Origin: a virus
Direction: 5' to 3' (one strand)
Virus genome (UHGV): UHGV-1526745
DNA: 57,022 bases
Positions within the stretch are counted from its first letter, which is position 1. Each line of letters opens with the position of its first letter. The notes below the pieces were generated by a model, which saw nothing but the letters and a program-made list of their open reading frames with translations, searched no databases and had not been told where the DNA came from. The translations under genes and the position numbers were made by a program. Below, one piece after another: positions 4,333-45,998 of the stretch.

Positions 4333-6123
4333 TTAAACAATTTCGCTTAATTGCGTATCAGTTAATGCTTTGTGCCATACTCGAACATTTCTGACATGAC
4401 CAAATAGATGACGTTCTCCAGTATTTGTTTTACCACCGATACAAATAGTTGCTGAGCTTTTGATATAAGTCCAGGTTGTTTTTGTTTCGCTGGATATACG
4501 TCCGTTACTTATTGCACATGTAAATTGATTTGCTTTTACACGCATCCCTATAACCATTTTTTCAAGAGAAGCGTTTTCATTAATGTGTGGGCTTGAGCCA
4601 CCAATATCACAATAAGGGAATCCGTCATGATCCGTTGCACGACCGAAGCCAAGAATAATAGCTGCTCCGGTTTGATTACCGCTGGTTTCAAAAACACGTG
4701 GCGCTGCATTTGGCGTTTTGCGCCAGTTCTTATGTACCTCACAAAGAACCGTAAAAGGAAGATTATAAAGGTTATTCTTGATTGGGGCTGTCACCATATC
4801 GCTTGCGCGCGTCGCCGCCGTCGTTTCTGATATAATAAAAGATGATGCGCAAGGGCCATTTTCAACCTGGGGGGTAGCCAGATAAATATAGTCACCAGAT
4901 TCAACGACGCCACCAGATTTTGGTGCGTATTGTATTGCAGAGGTTATGTAAGTTTCTTCACTTGCTTGAATCGTTGCCTCTACAAAAATCCAGCCCGCAG
5001 CTTCATCTTTGTTAACTCGTGCGGTAAGCCTGTCGGCAGCTACACCAGTGATTTCAACCAATAAAGACCGCGTATTAACAATGGCATATCCAAGATTAGA
5101 TGAAGCGCTGCCATCGAAGGCTTCAAACCTGATCCTTAACAGGAGTTCCAGATCCGTTTTAAATCTGCACGATGTCGTCACACACTTATTATCGCCTGAT
5201 ACATCGACAGCCCCCGAGGTTGAAACTACTGCCATATTAAGGGCTGTACTTTGCCCAATTAATGATTCATTACAAACAAACTTTCCATAAGTAAAACCAA
5301 AACTATCAGTTCCAACCTCAGCGATATTCATATTTGCAGATTTACCCCAAGAAGCTGGAGTTGCTGAATTCAACATGTAGTTTGTTCGCTGACCTTCAAT
5401 CAATAAACCTTCTTTTTCAAATCGTGGCTCATTAATTTCCGCCGTTTTCAGTTCGCCAGATTTGTTGATATATGTTGCCGTTGATGCGCGACTGAAATTA
5501 ACCTGTTTATCACTGGCAACCTGAACCACATTATCACCAATCTTCACTTTTTTATAACCCGGAGAATAGCCCGTAATCATATCCAGCGAATCATTAAAGG
5601 GCATCCACACATCCGGCAGAGGCTGTAAAACATACGCGTAAGGCTGCGCCGTCTGATTGGCGTATTCGTGGGCTTCGTCTCTGTATGTCTTAGCTGAATC
5701 TGCGGCGCTTGTCGCTGTTGTTGCAGCGTTGGTTGCAGTTGTAGCTGATTCTGATGCTAATTTTGAGGCTGAAATTACATCTTTGTTGTCGCTGAAAAAC
5801 TCCACAGCGTCCGCTATTTCTGATTCTTTGCCCTGATAGTAACGCAGTGTTTCTGCAACATCCTGAGCAAGACCATCCACAGAGATCGAATCTGAAAGCA
5901 GGATGCTAAATTTAGTCCCAGCCGGAATAGACGGACTTGCCGCCGGAGTTACCGACAAACTTGTTGCGCTTTTTACTTCTGTAATTGAGAAAATCTGCAC
6001 CGGATTGCTAATGGCAATAAGAGTGCAACCAACTCTGATCAGAGATAACGCGGCATTGAATTCAGTCCCTGTTCCGGTAACTGTGTTTCCGCTAACGGCT
6101 ATCGTGCCAGTTGTGTAAATCAT
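4333..6123 (-). CDS. tail fibre protein (receptor-binding, LamG/ConA-like C-terminus)
   Basis: 596-aa ORF after J-like gene; Gly/Thr/Ser-rich N-terminus, Ala/Thr-rich linker, lectin-like C-terminal region. Confidence 0.7.
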   Translation of the reverse strand: MIYTTGTIAVSGNTVTGTGTEFNAALSLIRVGCTLIAISNPVQIFSITEVKSATSLSVTPAASPSIPAGTKFSILLSDSISVDGLAQDVAETLRYYQGKESEIADAVEFFSDNKDVISASKLASESATTATNAATTATSAADSAKTYRDEAHEYANQTAQPYAYVLQPLPDVWMPFNDSLDMITGYSPGYKKVKIGDNVVQVASDKQVNFSRASTATYINKSGELKTAEINEPRFEKEGLLIEGQRTNYMLNSATPASWGKSANMNIAEVGTDSFGFTYGKFVCNESLIGQSTALNMAVVSTSGAVDVSGDNKCVTTSCRFKTDLELLLRIRFEAFDGSASSNLGYAIVNTRSLLVEITGVAADRLTARVNKDEAAGWIFVEATIQASEETYITSAIQYAPKSGGVVESGDYIYLATPQVENGPCASSFIISETTAATRASDMVTAPIKNNLYNLPFTVLCEVHKNWRKTPNAAPRVFETSGNQTGAAIILGFGRATDHDGFPYCDIGGSSPHINENASLEKMVIGMRVKANQFTCAISNGRISSETKTTWTYIKSSATICIGGKTNTGERHLFGHVRNVRVWHKALTDTQLSEIV

Positions 6124-41311: not shown

Positions 41312-41545
41312 TTAGAAATAATCCTGCTCCGTCCCCCAGCGGTTATTCAGATACCCCACCAACCACACAAAACGCTCAATGCTGATTAGCGGGGCGACCT
41401 TGCGATAATGCTTGTCGAGTATCAGCCGCGTGGCTTTATCGCTGTAGCCGTTCTTCTCTACCTCCGCTTTGCAGGCCGAAAGCGCGGCGCGGGCGGCAGT
41501 CTTTACGGCGTTAAATTGCGGCTCTGACATATTGAATAAGGCCAT
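41312..41545 (-). CDS. hypothetical protein
   Basis: Internal start of track ORF 41312..41704. Confidence 0.35.
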   Translation of the reverse strand: MALFNMSEPQFNAVKTAARAALSACKAEVEKNGYSDKATRLILDKHYRKVAPLISIERFVWLVGYLNNRWGTEQDYF

Positions 41546-41549
41546 AGGA

Positions 41550-41786
41550 TCACCATGTGTCAGTCCAATCCGGCGCGGCAGTCCAGCAAAAACCAATGAA
41601 TGCGCTAACAGCCAATAAAGCGCGGGCTGCAAAAAGAATATTCCCAATGTCGTTAAATTCAGGAAGCGACCACGTAATAAACATAGCCCCCAGCATAATA
41701 ACACCGATAACAGTCAGGGCCGCCAGGAAAACAAAAAGCGTAGCCAAAAGCCACGCCCCCAACCAGTTAAAAAAGCTCTTAAGCAT
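41550..41786 (-). CDS. hypothetical membrane protein
   Basis: Internal start (MLKSFFNWLGAW...); two TM segments. Confidence 0.4.
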   Translation of the reverse strand: MLKSFFNWLGAWLLATLFVFLAALTVIGVIMLGAMFITWSLPEFNDIGNILFAARALLAVSAFIGFCWTAAPDWTDTW

Positions 41787-41787
41787 T

Positions 41788-41991
41788 TTAAACGTCCTCA
41801 ATTACCCCGCCTTTCACGCGCTCTTTAATATCCCATACGTGAGGCTTGCATATTTCTTGATAGTAGTGATCCGGCCTGCTGCCGAAATACCATTTGCCAT
41901 CCATATAAAAATAAACGCCAGAAAAATTTCCTGGCGCTGCCTTTGTTGCTGCTTCTGGAATTTTCCATTCCATGTAATGTTTAAATTTCAT
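41788..41991 (-). CDS. hypothetical protein (67 aa)
   Basis: Track ORF. Confidence 0.35.
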   Translation of the reverse strand: MKFKHYMEWKIPEAATKAAPGNFSGVYFYMDGKWYFGSRPDHYYQEICKPHVWDIKERVKGGVIEDV

Positions 41992-42175
41992 GAGTTTTTA
42001 AATAACCTCTTCTGAATGCTTTGATGTAAATTCCTAATCTCCTTATATGTTGAACGCCATCAATAAGACGTATTAAATAAATCGCTCCTTTTGCGTCAGA
42101 TACAAATCTACACCCGAAACCAATGCCAACTAATTTTAGGCTATCAGGTATTCGATAATCAGTTTCTTGTTCCAT
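41981..42175 (-). CDS. hypothetical protein (64 aa)
   Basis: Track ORF. Confidence 0.35.
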   Translation of the reverse strand: MEQETDYRIPDSLKLVGIGFGCRFVSDAKGAIYLIRLIDGVQHIRRLGIYIKAFRRGYLKTHEI

Positions 42176-42271
42176 ACATTACCTCATATGGTATTCAATA
42201 AACCACCTGATAAACAGGTATAAGGCAATAAAACCCCAGAAACAGCACATATAAAACAATGTATCGTCCAT
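42176..42271 (-). CDS. tiny hydrophobic peptide (31 aa) MDDTLFYMCCFWGFIALYLFIRWFIEYHMR
   Basis: Manual translation; abuts downstream ORF. Confidence 0.3.
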
Positions 42272-42273
42272 AA

Positions 42274-42492
42274 TTAAGCCTCAATAACACCGTAATCAAA
42301 CGTGCCTAAATACCGTTCGATACTTACAACCTCAATACCATCAATACACCGTTTCCACACAGACACCTGGCTTTCATTTTCTCTGAAGTGCATATTAGAA
42401 AGCACTTCATCGGCTGGATAGTCTTTCCCGGCGACGTAGGCATCGTGACCTACGCCACCTTCTACGCAATAAAGCATCAATTCGCGTTCCAT
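42274..42492 (-). CDS. hypothetical protein
   Basis: Internal ATG after GGAGG RBS within track ORF 42274..42549. Confidence 0.35.
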   Translation of the reverse strand: MERELMLYCVEGGVGHDAYVAGKDYPADEVLSNMHFRENESQVSVWKRCIDGIEVVSIERYLGTFDYGVIEA

Positions 42493-42591
42493 TTTTGCTT
42501 CCTCCGCACCGTAAACCTTTTGATTTCGGCTTACAAAACGGATATACAATCACAATACAAAATGTATATTTATGTGATCGGAATTACTCGG

Positions 42592-43212
42592 TTAATGCAG
42601 TACACGTTTTCCCTGTTCAGGCGTCGGCTGTGCGTTTTTCCGTGCGTAATTAAGCACAGCGATAGCCGCCTGTACGCCGAAATCATTTGCACGCATATCA
42701 TTGCCAACCATTTCACCGTAAAACAATGGCATGAGCGCTTTTACTTCTTCCTCTTTGTGGCCTTCCTCAATGCATTTCTGCAACATCTTAACCTCAAAGA
42801 TATTTTTCATCAGGACGCGCATAGAATGCAGTGAAACACTACCAAGCTGTTCCTTGTTCAACGGGAAAATGACAGCACTTCCGAACGCGAGCGGATCAAC
42901 CTCTTCCGGCACTGGTACGCGTCCGAATTCTTCCTCCATGCGCTTCACAAAAGTAAGAGAGAATACATAACGCGCTACCGATGTTTTTTCTTCCATACTT
43001 AAAGACACGTAATCGCGGATTGACGCACCCATCACAATATCAACAACCTGTAGCGCCAGATTCAAATCAGCGTCATACGCGCCAGCTTCCATATCTTTCA
43101 ATACTTCGTGATAATCTTTAATTTCCACTTCGTGAAAGTTTGCATCATCTGTATAGCGAGTGATCAACATACCTTCATTACCGAGAGAGTAAGCTGTTTT
43201 GATGTCGTTCAT
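42592..43212 (-). CDS. hypothetical protein (206 aa)
   Basis: Track ORF. Confidence 0.45.
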   Translation of the reverse strand: MNDIKTAYSLGNEGMLITRYTDDANFHEVEIKDYHEVLKDMEAGAYDADLNLALQVVDIVMGASIRDYVSLSMEEKTSVARYVFSLTFVKRMEEEFGRVPVPEEVDPLAFGSAVIFPLNKEQLGSVSLHSMRVLMKNIFEVKMLQKCIEEGHKEEEVKALMPLFYGEMVGNDMRANDFGVQAAIAVLNYARKNAQPTPEQGKRVLH

Positions 43213-43225
43213 GATATTTATCCTT

Positions 43226-43558
43226 TTATAGTGGGTGATGCCATTTCATTTCAGTTTCTGAATTAAACGGGTTTCCTTCGCTTGAAAGGAATAAATCACG
43301 CTCCCGTTTCAGTTCTTCCGGGCTTATTTCTATTTCATCAATCTGACCGAACGATCCCGGCATCATTCGTTTTAAATCAGATAGCGGACGCATAAGGCCG
43401 CAGCCGCGTAACAGCATATCGACCGCGAATTGTCTACGTCCGCCAGCGTCATTGAAGCGCCGCGCCCAGGGCACAACCACGATCCGGCGTTCGAATTCGA
43501 TAAATAGTGATAGCTTGTTTGTTTCGCTATCATATGCTTTATGGAATTTAATTTTCAT
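43226..43558 (-). CDS. hypothetical protein (110 aa)
   Basis: Track ORF. Confidence 0.4.
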   Translation of the reverse strand: MKIKFHKAYDSETNKLSLFIEFERRIVVVPWARRFNDAGGRRQFAVDMLLRGCGLMRPLSDLKRMMPGSFGQIDEIEISPEELKRERDLFLSSEGNPFNSETEMKWHHPL

Positions 43559-43739
43559 TTAACACCTCAACATATTGTTCAAGATGCCATTGACCCACCT
43601 CATCATCTTCCTCGTCAAATAATGTTACCTGACCACCAGGCCCAAAAGAAAAGGCAGCTATGATAAATTTATACCCATACCACGTACGGATCTTTTCGCC
43701 GCCTTTTAAATCTTTAACTTTTACCAATTTTATAGCCAT
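43548..43739 (-). CDS. hypothetical protein (63 aa)
   Basis: Track ORF. Confidence 0.35.
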   Translation of the reverse strand: MAIKLVKVKDLKGGEKIRTWYGYKFIIAAFSFGPGGQVTLFDEEDDEVGQWHLEQYVEVLNEN

Positions 43740-44002
43740 ACGCCGAACATCCCATTCAGTCCGGCGAACAATTTCCGCCAGTGGTCTTCAACATAAGCCC
43801 GGAACGGCTTAACGCGAACGTTACGGGCCTTCAGTTCGATCTTGTCAAAGAAGCGCGGCTCTATAATTGTTCCGTCCAGATATTTAACCAGGATCGGACG
43901 CTCAAGATCGTTATATGTCTTATTCAGCACAACCAGACCAGGGTCTTTACGGTATTCCGGGAGCACGACCAGATCACCCGTTTTGATATTCATGAATGGC
44001 AT
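43730..44002 (-). CDS. hypothetical protein
   Basis: Track ORF 43730..44005 (GTG); ATG at 44002 preferred. Confidence 0.4.
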   Translation of the reverse strand: MPFMNIKTGDLVVLPEYRKDPGLVVLNKTYNDLERPILVKYLDGTIIEPRFFDKIELKARNVRVKPFRAYVEDHWRKLFAGLNGMFGVWL

Positions 44003-44118
44003 CACATCACCCCGCCGATATAGCTAATAATTGCCGCAGTCGCGCCAGCTATTACCACCATGAAGACGAAAGCGACCACATAGAAAACAGCCTTGACAGT
44101 ATTTTTGTCGACTCGCAT
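44002..44118 (-). CDS. small hydrophobic peptide (38 aa) MRVDKNTVKAVFYVVAFVFMVVIAGATAAIISYIGGVM
   Basis: Manual translation; coupled to neighbours. Confidence 0.35.
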   Translation of the reverse strand: MRVDKNTVKAVFYVVAFVFMVVIAGATAAIISYIGGVM

Positions 44119-44125
44119 ATAAACC

Positions 44126-44233
44126 TCACATGTCAGTAATCAGCTTAACAATCGCCACAGTGATATAGAGTGACGCACTAAGGTAAACAGCCGCCACAGC
44201 AACGGCGGCGGATAACATTGCAATCTTTTTCAT
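44126..44233 (-). CDS. small hydrophobic peptide (35 aa) MKKIAMLSAAVAVAAVYLSASLYITVAIVKLITDM
   Basis: Manual translation; ATGA overlap with upstream stop. Confidence 0.35.
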   Translation of the reverse strand: MKKIAMLSAAVAVAAVYLSASLYITVAIVKLITDM

Positions 44234-44481
44234 TTGCCACCCTCCGCAATGAACTTATCAAGCCATTTGTTATTAGCCAGCCGTTCGGCATCTTCGCCAA
44301 ATGATTTACGTTCGCTTAATTCCTTGCGCGTCGGGAAAGGCCATTTATCGTGCCAGCCCGCCGACGTTTCGAATTCATAGTTATCGCCACCGAATTCGAC
44401 AAATACATCACCATCGTCTGAGGTTTCCGCAGTCCCCTGAAAACCGCGCCCGTTATTTTCGCTTAATGTTGTAGCTGTCAT
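44230..44481 (-). CDS. hypothetical protein (83 aa)
   Basis: Track ORF. Confidence 0.4.
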   Translation of the reverse strand: MTATTLSENNGRGFQGTAETSDDGDVFVEFGGDNYEFETSAGWHDKWPFPTRKELSERKSFGEDAERLANNKWLDKFIAEGGK

Positions 44482-44493
44482 GGTAATACCTCA

Positions 44494-44772
44494 TTAATCG
44501 TTAATAACCTTGCCCATACGCCCGCGATATTTGCGCATTCGTGGATCAACATATTCAGGCCACTGCATATCATCAGTTTTCTGTAGCGGGTAAGAACTCG
44601 CTCGCCAGTTGTCAAACCAGATTTGCTTCGCGTACAGGTCACTAAATCTTTTCGCCATTCGATCCGCTGCCGTGCCGCATAAAAAAAGCCCGCGATCGAT
44701 TTGATCGCGGGCTTCTTTTAATACTTGCTCTTTTGTTCGTGGTTGCGGTGGCGGTTTTAGACAATCACTCAT
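44494..44772 (-). CDS. hypothetical protein
   Basis: Internal start (MSDCLKPPPQ...) of track ORF 44494..44904. Confidence 0.4.
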   Translation of the reverse strand: MSDCLKPPPQPRTKEQVLKEARDQIDRGLFLCGTAADRMAKRFSDLYAKQIWFDNWRASSYPLQKTDDMQWPEYVDPRMRKYRGRMGKVIND

Positions 44773-44788
44773 CGCTAACACATTGATT

Positions 44789-45208
44789 CTAAAAAGGAAT
44801 ATCGTCGTCGAAGTCCATCGGAGGCGGATTATTCCCGTTATTATTCTGCTGCTGCGGCGGCGCTTTCTGCTGCTGTCCTTGCTGCTGGCCTTGTTGGTTA
44901 ACATTCATGAATTCAAATTCATTAACCGCCACTTCTACCGCAGTCCCCTTCGTGCCGTCGTTCCGGTCATATTGCCGAACATCCAGGCGACCGCTTACCA
45001 CTATTTTTCCACCCTTGCGGATATGTGGCGCTAATTTTTCCGCACGCTCACCAAATACCAGGCAAGTGATCCACATTGTCCGCTTGTTATCACCGTAGCC
45101 ATTCGTTACAGCTAACGGAAAACTACCAATCGCTTTACCGTTTTGCGTGTAGCGAACTTCCATGTCGTTTCCGATATTCCCGCCCAGCGTAATTGAATTC
45201 AAACTCAT
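44789..45208 (-). CDS. ssb: single-stranded DNA-binding protein
   Basis: OB-fold N-terminus, Gln/Gly-rich linker, acidic tail DFDDDIPF. Confidence 0.9.
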   Translation of the reverse strand: MSLNSITLGGNIGNDMEVRYTQNGKAIGSFPLAVTNGYGDNKRTMWITCLVFGERAEKLAPHIRKGGKIVVSGRLDVRQYDRNDGTKGTAVEVAVNEFEFMNVNQQGQQQGQQQKAPPQQQNNNGNNPPPMDFDDDIPF

Positions 45209-45852
45209 TAACCCATCTCCCCGTTAAGCTCTGCGACCCGGATGTCATAAACATCTTTTGCCTTGATTCGATGTTCCGATCCTTCCGGTAGTAATTTCCA
45301 GCATTTGCCAAATATTTCACGCAGCTTGTTAGCGTCCTGCGCTTTCGCTGCTGCATCACAGAAACGTGCTAATACTTCATCAGGATTTGGCGGCGCTTTC
45401 TTCTGCTGCGGTTGTTGTTTTGGTGGGTTTTTCTGTTGTCGCGGCTGCTGGCCTGTCTGCTTCGCGTAAGCATCAGTATCAGGATCGCGAGCATCATCTA
45501 TACAGAATAAACCGTTCAAAGCATATTTACGCGCGTAACTTGATGTTGCTCCTGTTAGCTGGCTGGCGTCCATACCCTTCTTGTTTTCTTCCTCCCTGGC
45601 ATAAGCAGTTACCGCTATTACGTCTTCACCGTCGCTTAGCGTCGCCGTTGCTTTCACATAATAGCGATTGCCGATCAGGACAATTTCATCACTAACAGTC
45701 AGCGTGATATTTTGAAGCAGTGGTTTAACCGCCTCTAAAATATCCTCCGCCGACCTGTAATTATATCCACCAAAATTATTACGCTGATTTTTCGGCGCGT
45801 TCAGCGTTTGCTGAATCGTCCATAGCTTTTTATGTAACTCTGTTTTCACCAT
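45208..45852 (-). CDS. Erf-family single-strand annealing recombinase
   Basis: 214-aa ORF directly upstream of ssb; resembles P22 Erf-type proteins (recalled). Confidence 0.7.
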   Translation of the reverse strand: MVKTELHKKLWTIQQTLNAPKNQRNNFGGYNYRSAEDILEAVKPLLQNITLTVSDEIVLIGNRYYVKATATLSDGEDVIAVTAYAREEENKKGMDASQLTGATSSYARKYALNGLFCIDDARDPDTDAYAKQTGQQPRQQKNPPKQQPQQKKAPPNPDEVLARFCDAAAKAQDANKLREIFGKCWKLLPEGSEHRIKAKDVYDIRVAELNGEMG

Positions 45853-45998
45853 TTAATCTCCCGTGCTGTTAACACTATGTATAAGGCTTTATTCGCGGCG
45901 CTCCACATTTCGGCATCGTGAAGCATTTCCGCTACTGCCAGTTTGAATTGAAGCGCCTGAATAACCATAATGTCATCTCCGGATGTTTACATTTTGTA

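Follow-up and report, generated by a model that had tools for sequence, protein, structure and literature searches.

The stretch of DNA analyzed here (the window) is the 57,022-nucleotide virus genome UHGV-1526745, and the element that it contains is an Escherichia coli prophage of the mEpimmI (mEp021) group. Three short open reading frames (ORFs), termed A, B, and C, lie on the minus strand of the window. Gene A spans 44126..44233, including the stop codon, and encodes the 35-residue peptide MKKIAMLSAAVAVAAVYLSASLYITVAIVKLITDM. Gene B (38 residues, MRVDKNTVKAVFYVVAFVFMVVIAGATAAIISYIGGVM) and gene C (30 residues, MDDTLFYMCCFWGFIALYLFIRWFIEYHMR) occupy 44002..44118 and 42179..42271, respectively, again with their stop codons. 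Each gene fills the gap between two other genes nearly to the base. An earlier interpretation made from the letters of the window (the sequence-only reading) had quoted the three peptides, and all were found exactly as quoted; the strand, which had been left unstated, is minus. The boundary of C had been set at 42176. C ends at 42179, and positions 42176-42178 are the 3-nucleotide spacer before the next ATG at 42175, so that 42176 is the edge of the gap. Comparison of the sequence with its relatives indicates that A, B, and C are genuine protein-coding microgenes.

The junctions between these genes and their neighbors are tight. The ATG of A overlaps the TGA of the upstream 83-residue gene to form an ATGA (44230-44233), the stop codon of A is separated from the ATG of B by a 7-nucleotide interval with a GAGG, and the TGA of B shares one base with the ATG of the following 90-residue gene (TGATG, 44000-44004). 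Coupling of A and B by ATGA overlaps had been proposed; that description fits the junction ahead of A and neither of the two junctions that follow. The ATG of C lies 2 nucleotides past the TAA of a 72-residue gene, and its stop codon is 3 nucleotides ahead of the ATG of a 64-residue gene. The Shine-Dalgarno sequences are, on the same strand, GGAGGG for A (44240..44245), within the 3' end of the upstream gene; GAGG for B (44124..44127), which overlaps the A stop codon and stands 5 nucleotides ahead of the B ATG; and GAGG for C (42279..42282), within the last codons of the upstream 72-residue gene. The sequence immediately ahead of each of the three genes showed no promoter-like site on their strand. 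The lack of an adjacent promoter-like site, the location of the Shine-Dalgarno sequences in the preceding genes, and the stop/start overlaps make coupled translation with the surrounding delayed-early genes most likely.

Conservation was examined in 45 IMG/VR loci gathered via the neighboring 90-residue protein, to which the M15 prophage, mEp021, and MagusPhagus were added (n = 48). C was assessed in 46 loci. DNA divergence among the 48 loci reaches ~25–35% in the A/B stretch, and identity is ~74–77% for A and lower for B. A is intact in 47 of the 48 loci, the exception being L009, where a 1-nucleotide frameshift joins it to an upstream frame. B is intact in all 48. C is intact in 45 of its 46 loci; in the exception, L014, it is truncated and the next gene is damaged too. 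Alleles of A have 35, 37, or 39 residues, alleles of B have 38, 39, or 40, and alleles of C have 30, and all of the length differences are whole codons. The ATG start of each gene is kept in all loci. GGAGG is found upstream of A at every locus examined and GAGG upstream of C in all loci, and B is preceded by tGAGG throughout, with GGGG instead in two allele types.

The ratio of nonsynonymous to synonymous substitution (dN/dS) was calculated by the Nei-Gojobori method over unique sequences, and the same alignments were re-read in the two shifted frames. The dN/dS of A was 0.19, compared to 1.05 and 1.41 in the shifted frames. The corresponding values were 0.33 for B (shifted frames, 0.87 and 1.07) and 0.12 for C (shifted frames, 0.86 and 2.54). 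The four flanking annotated genes gave 0.11–0.32. Both shifted frames of all three genes contain stops in every sequence. Variable sites at codon positions 1/2/3 number 24/18/35 in A, 21/22/34 in B, and 8/5/18 in C, an enrichment at the third position. In the most divergent relatives, whose neighbor protein is 64% identical, genes of 37 and 39 residues are called at the A and B positions, and a 29-residue C homologue (MDAEMMFMACCWGIVAVGLFLRWVIEKYL, ~50% identity) is present at the C position. The window contains 17 ORFs of 28–60 residues with a KD17 hydropathy of at least 2.1, compared to ~4 in Markov-simulated sequence, and most of the 17 are probably not genes. Hydrophobicity alone is therefore not decisive, and the case for A, B, and C rests on conservation. 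Conservation analysis had been named as a check by the sequence-only reading, and it finds the ORFs, starts, Shine-Dalgarno sequences, and frames conserved across diverged relatives. Frame-specific purifying selection, together with the kept starts, ribosome-binding sites, frames, and hydrophobic segment, argues that A, B, and C are genuine microprotein genes.

The three peptides share a hydrophobic segment and differ in its surroundings. The KD19 hydropathy maxima across all alleles are 2.19–2.56 for A (20 alleles), 2.58–3.08 for B, and 1.69–2.37 for C. A has a 26-residue uncharged stretch. Its C-terminal half (YLSxSLYITVAIIKLITxM) is near-invariant and carries a polar stripe of Y17, S21, Y23, T25, K30, and T33, and its Ala-rich N-terminal half is variable. 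B has a basic N terminus (M[KR]VxK) followed by a 29-residue uncharged stretch. Its conserved residues are F12, F17, F19, G25, A28, and A29, and it has a small-residue patch, G25-A26-x-A28-A29. The AlphaFold model of B, built with 38 sequences, is one helix from residue 5 to residue 37 (pLDDT 90.9). The 18-residue uncharged core of C, in which C9, W12, and G13 never vary, lies between an acidic N terminus and an invariant basic/aromatic tail, RWFIEYHMR; 21 of the 30 residues of C are invariant. The single-sequence AlphaFold model of C is a helix spanning residues 3–29 (pLDDT 94.3). These properties and models support the prediction that A, B, and C are single-pass inner-membrane proteins, each with a helix whose length suffices, or almost suffices, to cross the membrane. 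The proposal that the ORFs are real single-transmembrane peptide genes below the usual size cutoff was borne out by selection confined to the proposed frames, by a hydrophobic segment in every allele, and by the single-helix models of B and C.

Cysteines are frequent in B and C of the relatives, and the window alleles have Tyr, Phe, or Ala instead; the cysteines are therefore not essential. At B codon 13 (44080..44082), the Tyr of the window is rare (18 contigs versus 422 with Cys13), and the 99.9%-identical M15 prophage has Cys13. The C11F and C18Y substitutions in the window allele of C are common to L004, L005, L030, and L036. Profile–profile comparison of A, B, and C detected no relationship, and the three are therefore not paralogues.

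The annotation of these genes depends on the record. The A, B, and C stretches are empty in the RefSeq/PGAP annotation of M15 and in the 2018 mEp021 record. Orthologues of all three are listed at the same positions, with no differences, as "hypothetical protein" in PHANOTATE-annotated mEp044 (PP180004; mEp044_27, _28, and _34) and in MagusPhagus (PP925836; CDS0113, CDS0112, and CDS0106). The exact window peptides occur on 423 public contigs for A, 18 for B in its Y13 form, and 99 for C, and GenBank E. coli drafts carry the peptides (for example, ELC61238.1 and ELC75897.1). The names on public entries are only "hypothetical," "uncharacterised," or "putative membrane protein." Text searches of the mEpimmI phage paper (PMC11893012) found no discussion of A, B, or C. 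The statement that such peptides are routinely missed by annotation thus holds for PGAP M15 and the original mEp021 record, but not for mEp044, MagusPhagus, or the many GenBank drafts in which they are listed.

Searches of A, B, and C against Pfam (E ≤ 1), PHROGs, NCBIfam, and PADLOC returned no family match. A profile search with B, in which the alignment was led by the 40-residue allele, recovered 72 homologous clusters, all of 37–48 residues; where the source name gives an organism, it is E. coli or Caudoviricetes. A query of A extended by five native upstream in-frame codons recovered two clusters only. C gave no matches among 1.84 billion representatives, probably because 30 residues are too short for significance or because such ORFs are rarely called there. 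With tblastn, B matched MagusPhagus only among the phages, and C matched only the seven mEpimmI records among 50,697 phage records; A gave no match, owing to the low-complexity filter. These searches indicate that the three families are lineage-restricted orphans with homologues in the mEp021-type phage group only. This kind of gene is already known, and the genes are already predicted as hypothetical in sister genomes. Conserved hydrophobic microgenes are expected rather than surprising in a phage early operon.

Over the region that carries the three genes (41500-45000), identity is 99.9% to the E. coli M15 prophage and 81–94% to mEp021, mEp010, mEp013, mEp044, mEp515, mEp554, and MagusPhagus. 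The region was found in 35 of 5,426 complete E. coli genomes (~0.6%). The mEpimmI phages are described as Nus-dependent, non-lambdoid temperate coliphages, and phages of this type are reported to be prevalent in the human gut (PMC11893012). Their operon runs in one direction in the order repressor, N-like gp17, erf, ssb, abc2-like, and, further on, Dam, NinG/RusA, Q-like, and lysis. The repressor, the N-like gene, erf, ssb, and abc2 are upstream of A, B, and C and face the same way, and the replication genes are divergent from this operon. The authors of the mEpimmI paper located nutR1 and nutR2 in this operon and described antitermination by Gp17 (PMC11893012). The name "early-left arm," which the sequence-only reading gave to the region, is a lambda analogy and not the nomenclature of the mEp021 group, since nutR1 and nutR2 are placed in the operon that holds A, B, and C, and this operon runs into the Q-like and lysis genes.

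A strong intrinsic terminator is located ahead of A at 44686..44714 on the minus strand, inside the abc2-like coding sequence (44494..44772). Its folding energy is -33.4 kcal/mol (z -8.3), and its 17-pair stem in the fold is followed by U7 on the coding strand. The equivalent in mEp044 is labeled "T4" and lies inside mEp044_25. The site also has sub-threshold Rfam matches to leader/attenuator models. A strong terminator at this place would fit a need of the downstream genes, A, B, and C included, for Gp17 antitermination. A second, short GC hairpin (GCCGCCGUUGCUGUGGCGGC then UGUUUACCUU; 44190..44209, minus strand) is located within codons 9–15 of A, at the position of "TERM_2" of mEp021; in the mEp021 record, TERM_2 lies inside the A equivalent, at codons 6–12 there. 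The window hairpin is weak (-13.3 kcal/mol, z -0.97 versus shuffles) and no stabler than synonymous-codon permutations (z +0.55). With GCN codons encoding an Ala-rich helix, as in the window allele of A, such hairpins come for free. The hairpin of mEp021-type A alleles is stabler than synonymous permutations (z -1.7 to -2.7), and a dual coding/terminator role of A is possible in those alleles.

All of the genes that flank the three microgenes lie on the minus strand. The 83-residue gene upstream of A is gp22-like (44230..44481; PHROG 28542), the 90-residue gene downstream of B is gp23-like (43730..44002), the 72-residue gene upstream of C is gp26-like (42274..42492; PHROG 28996), and the 64-residue gene downstream of C is gp27-like (41981..42175). 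Both PHROGs are function-unknown families, and searches of the neighbor proteins against Pfam, PHROGs, NCBIfam, and PADLOC returned only PHROGs of this sort. PGAP starts the 90-residue gene at 43993 and names its product "toxin-antitoxin system toxin subunit." This name has no backing from NCBIfam, Pfam, PADLOC, or PDB matches, and the relatives indicate that the gene starts at the ATG at 44002 that is coupled to the B stop codon. A PDB sequence search with the 90-residue protein and a 206-residue neighbor protein gave nothing useful, and no relative of the 90-residue protein was found on species-representative genome contigs.

Three other places in the window were recorded. The 99-nucleotide gap between the 206-residue and 72-residue genes (42493..42591, minus strand) has no ORF inside. 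It contains two hairpins that are stabler than shuffles (-27.2 kcal/mol, z -3.6) and could serve as an operator or as a site of processing or termination. Between the N-like gene and erf, a 40-residue ORF (MVIQALQFKLAVAEMLHDAEMWSAANKALYIVLTAREIKW; 45846..45968, minus strand) is left unannotated by PGAP and is probably the "Kil-like protein" named in the mEpimmI paper (PMC11893012). L053 has a 39-residue ORF at the equivalent position with a faint match to Lambda_Kil (PF06301). Downstream of the lysis genes, 29440..30195 (minus strand) holds tandem tiny hydrophobic ORFs of 34, 27, 24, 35, 26–28, 24, and 27 residues, with MDAYIIAGLIGVSVFLVGSIIVALINVYIKYLVG and MDIFELLAIMCGMMFCVVAVIIIIGLVIGSVNERI as examples. 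This run is probably the nine-gene array that the sequence-only reading had invoked in suggesting that the prophage is unusually rich in small membrane peptides.

The distribution of alleles may reflect relationships among the three genes and their neighbors. Type 0 alleles of A occur alongside type 0 alleles of B, and type 3 of A alongside type 2 of B, and the allele types of gp22 and gp23 vary around the pair. A and B are always adjacent and seem to be passed on together as a cassette, with recombination of the genes on either side, and they may act as a pair. The stop codon of C and the ATG of the 64-residue gene are exactly 3 nucleotides apart and in the same frame in 45 of 45 loci examined. 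In L055 and L056 (1501-1791 in both, equivalent to window 41981..42271), a TGA to TGG change (atgagg tgg ggc atg) fuses C in frame to the 64-residue gene. The C-gp27 fusion is 96 residues long and is present in four contigs from at least two independent samples. The possibility that it is a gene-calling artefact of genetic code 4 was ruled out, as the DNA contains a real TGA to TGG change. The fusion fits a cytoplasmic C terminus of C and a functional link between the two proteins, and C may work with, or tether, the 64-residue protein encoded 3 nucleotides downstream. In divergent relatives, the site upstream of C is itself variable: L052 has an extra 32-residue hydrophobic ORF (MWLIDLILACWLIVLVGFVGYFAWEEGKHNGR; 4932-5030) between the 72-residue gene and its C homologue, and the same ORF is broken by stops in L053 and L054. 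This pattern suggests that membrane microgenes come and go at this site.

We consider it likely that A, B, and C are genuine and mutually unrelated microgenes in a long early operon controlled by N-like (gp17-type) antitermination, each encoding one hydrophobic helix. The peptides would be produced along with the products of the surrounding delayed-early genes once the prophage is induced or a cell is infected. They would then insert into the inner membrane and, rather than acting as enzymes, would bind or modulate larger proteins there. A positive-inside argument for topology is provided by the basic N terminus of B and by the acidic N terminus and basic C terminus of C. Biologically, they may contribute to host takeover at an early stage or to protection at the membrane.

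Several points weigh against this model. Translation, membrane insertion, and any phenotype of A, B, and C are predictions from sequence, and the reported proteomics of mEpimmI phages covered virions only (PMC11893012). None of the three peptides has homology to a characterized protein. The compared loci are phylogenetically related, and the counts of intact ORFs are non-independent observations. The KD19 of the window allele of C, 1.69, is barely over the classical threshold of 1.6, and its uncharged stretch has only 18 residues. Co-inheritance of A and B is explicable by linkage alone, given that they are 7 nucleotides apart. The constant C/gp27 spacer is explicable by the spacing between the Shine-Dalgarno sequence and the ATG, and a decaying prophage could have acquired the fusion by chance, with no selective effect. 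Finally, the sequence of A is compatible with a cleaved Sec signal peptide, in that the conserved C-terminal 14 residues follow a small residue at -3 and an unvarying Ser at -1.

The foremost alternative, which was implied by the sequence-only reading and which we regard as unlikely, is that A, B, and C are membrane-damaging toxins of the type I toxin, holin, or viroporin kind. Such peptides would oligomerize and depolarize or permeabilize the inner membrane, leading to host shut-down, abortion of superinfection, or timing of lysis. A length of 30–38 residues, a single hydrophobic helix, and charged ends do resemble the Hok/Ldr/TisB class, the conserved half of A has its polar stripe, and the glycine/alanine motif of B could support self-association. 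Overexpression of an operon neighbor, ipe, was reported to give cell death and hemolysis (PMC11893012). However, A, B, and C match no Pfam toxin or holin family, and no antisense-RNA family or other Rfam match covers the ORFs. The genes are coupled within a polycistronic early operon and have no promoter-like site directly upstream, unlike type I toxin–antitoxin modules, and the lysis cassette is ~10 kb away. Constitutive early expression of three toxins would also have to be reconciled with a productive lytic cycle.

A bolder extension of the microgene model is that these are founding early-gene families of membrane adaptors. Two co-adapted helices, A and B, would pair into a complex that targets a host inner-membrane machine (for example, a DNA-entry transporter, the divisome, or a protease), and C would tether the 64-residue protein, covalently so in the stop-loss strains. 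In mEp021-type alleles, A would hold a functional terminator, and coupled translation of A would decide whether the operon is read on. We judge this full scheme unlikely.

It is more doubtful still that A is a pre-peptide. In that case, a Sec signal peptide would span residues 1–21, and cleavage behind the invariant Ser21 would release the highly conserved 14-residue LYITVAIVKLITDM to the periplasm or the outer leaflet. The MKK N terminus is followed by a variable Ala/Val/Leu-rich h-region, and [S/A/T]-x-S precedes the conserved C-terminal block (LSAS, LSVS, LSLS, LAAS, or ITAS in the alleles). A variable N-terminal half and a conserved C-terminal half are also what a signal peptide and its mature peptide would have. 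This view comes from a reading of the sequence by eye, and most alleles have a single basic residue at the N terminus. The would-be mature part is hydrophobic and contiguous with the h-region, and an uncharged stretch of 26 residues is typical of an uncleaved transmembrane helix.

There is little reason to think that A, B, and C are translated only to hold ribosomes on the mRNA, for coupling, protection from Rho polarity, or masking of the hairpin in A, with peptides that have no function of their own. The tight junctions (ATGA, TGATG, and spacers of 2–7 nucleotides), the Shine-Dalgarno sequences inside preceding genes, and the stability of the TERM_2 hairpin in mEp021-type alleles of A all agree with such a role. 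However, a spacer ORF would not need purifying selection on its amino acids (dN/dS 0.12–0.33), hydrophobic helices that are kept in all alleles despite extensive nucleotide change, or the many invariant residues of C. The view that the stretches are non-coding regulatory spacers, with a terminator or attenuator such as TERM_2 or another RNA structure and chance ORFs, draws on the terminator-like hairpin in A (44209..44190), on the empty PGAP and original mEp021 annotations, and on the small hydrophobic ORFs expected by chance in a simulated window, but it is effectively refuted by frame-specific selection, stops in the other frames, whole-codon indels, and kept ATG and Shine-Dalgarno sequences, and the window hairpin is no stabler than shuffles or synonymous permutations and no Rfam family matches the ORFs.

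These results bear on annotation and on phage biology. RefSeq/PGAP annotation of mEp021-type prophages omits at least three selected genes, and A, B, and C offer phage membrane microproteins as a clean set for testing. Should A/B or C prove to have host membrane proteins as binding partners, the short list of phage microproteins with known targets would grow.

The Entero67K catalogue of Enterobacteriaceae describes ORFs of 15–70 codons in PGAP intergenic gaps that are under purifying selection, are hydrophobic, and have no Pfam domain (PMC11188072). A, B, and C match this description exactly. They differ in that ~5% of the Entero67K clusters have a predicted transmembrane segment (PMC11188072), whereas the hydrophobic helix is conserved in each of the three families here. 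Unlike holins, antiholins, and pinholins, the three genes are outside the holin–lysozyme–Rz cassette, which is ~10 kb downstream in the operon, and they have no Pfam or PHROG holin match. Exclusion in mEpimmI phages was assigned to an Lpp lipoprotein (PMC11893012). In contrast to exclusion lipoproteins (Cor, Llp, and mEp Lpp), A, B, and C lack a lipobox ([LVI][ASTVI][GAS]C) and are unmatched in PHROGs and PADLOC. Cys is absent from A, B carries FC or FY with a Phe that is disallowed at -1, and the Cys residues of C are preceded by M or C. In common with lambda Kil and CIII, T4 Imm and Sp, P22 SieA, HK97 gp15, and Cor/Llp, they are small, are encoded among early or prophage-expressed genes, and are predicted to act at or near the membrane. 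They show no homology to any of these proteins and no Pfam match to Kil or CIII, including PF06301, and the faint Lambda_Kil match belongs to the other ORF by the N-like gene. Their place in the recombination and host-takeover region downstream of the N-like gene is of the same kind as that of the Kil, CIII, and exclusion genes.

Type I toxins (Hok/Gef, Ldr, TisB, Ibs, ShoB, DinQ, and ZorO) are 19–50 residues long with a single hydrophobic helix and are often found in prophages. A, B, and C differ from them in lacking Pfam similarity, a PADLOC match, their own promoter, a long 5' untranslated region, and an antisense RNA, and in being coupled inside a phage operon. AcrZ, MgtS, MgrB, KdpF, CydX, and SgrT are single-pass E. 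coli regulators of 30–50 residues, each of which works through a partner protein to which it binds. A, B, and C are phage rather than chromosomal genes and have no similarity to these regulators in Pfam or NCBIfam. By analogy, partner binding of the AcrZ/MgtS type is the favored working model for how A, B, and C may act.

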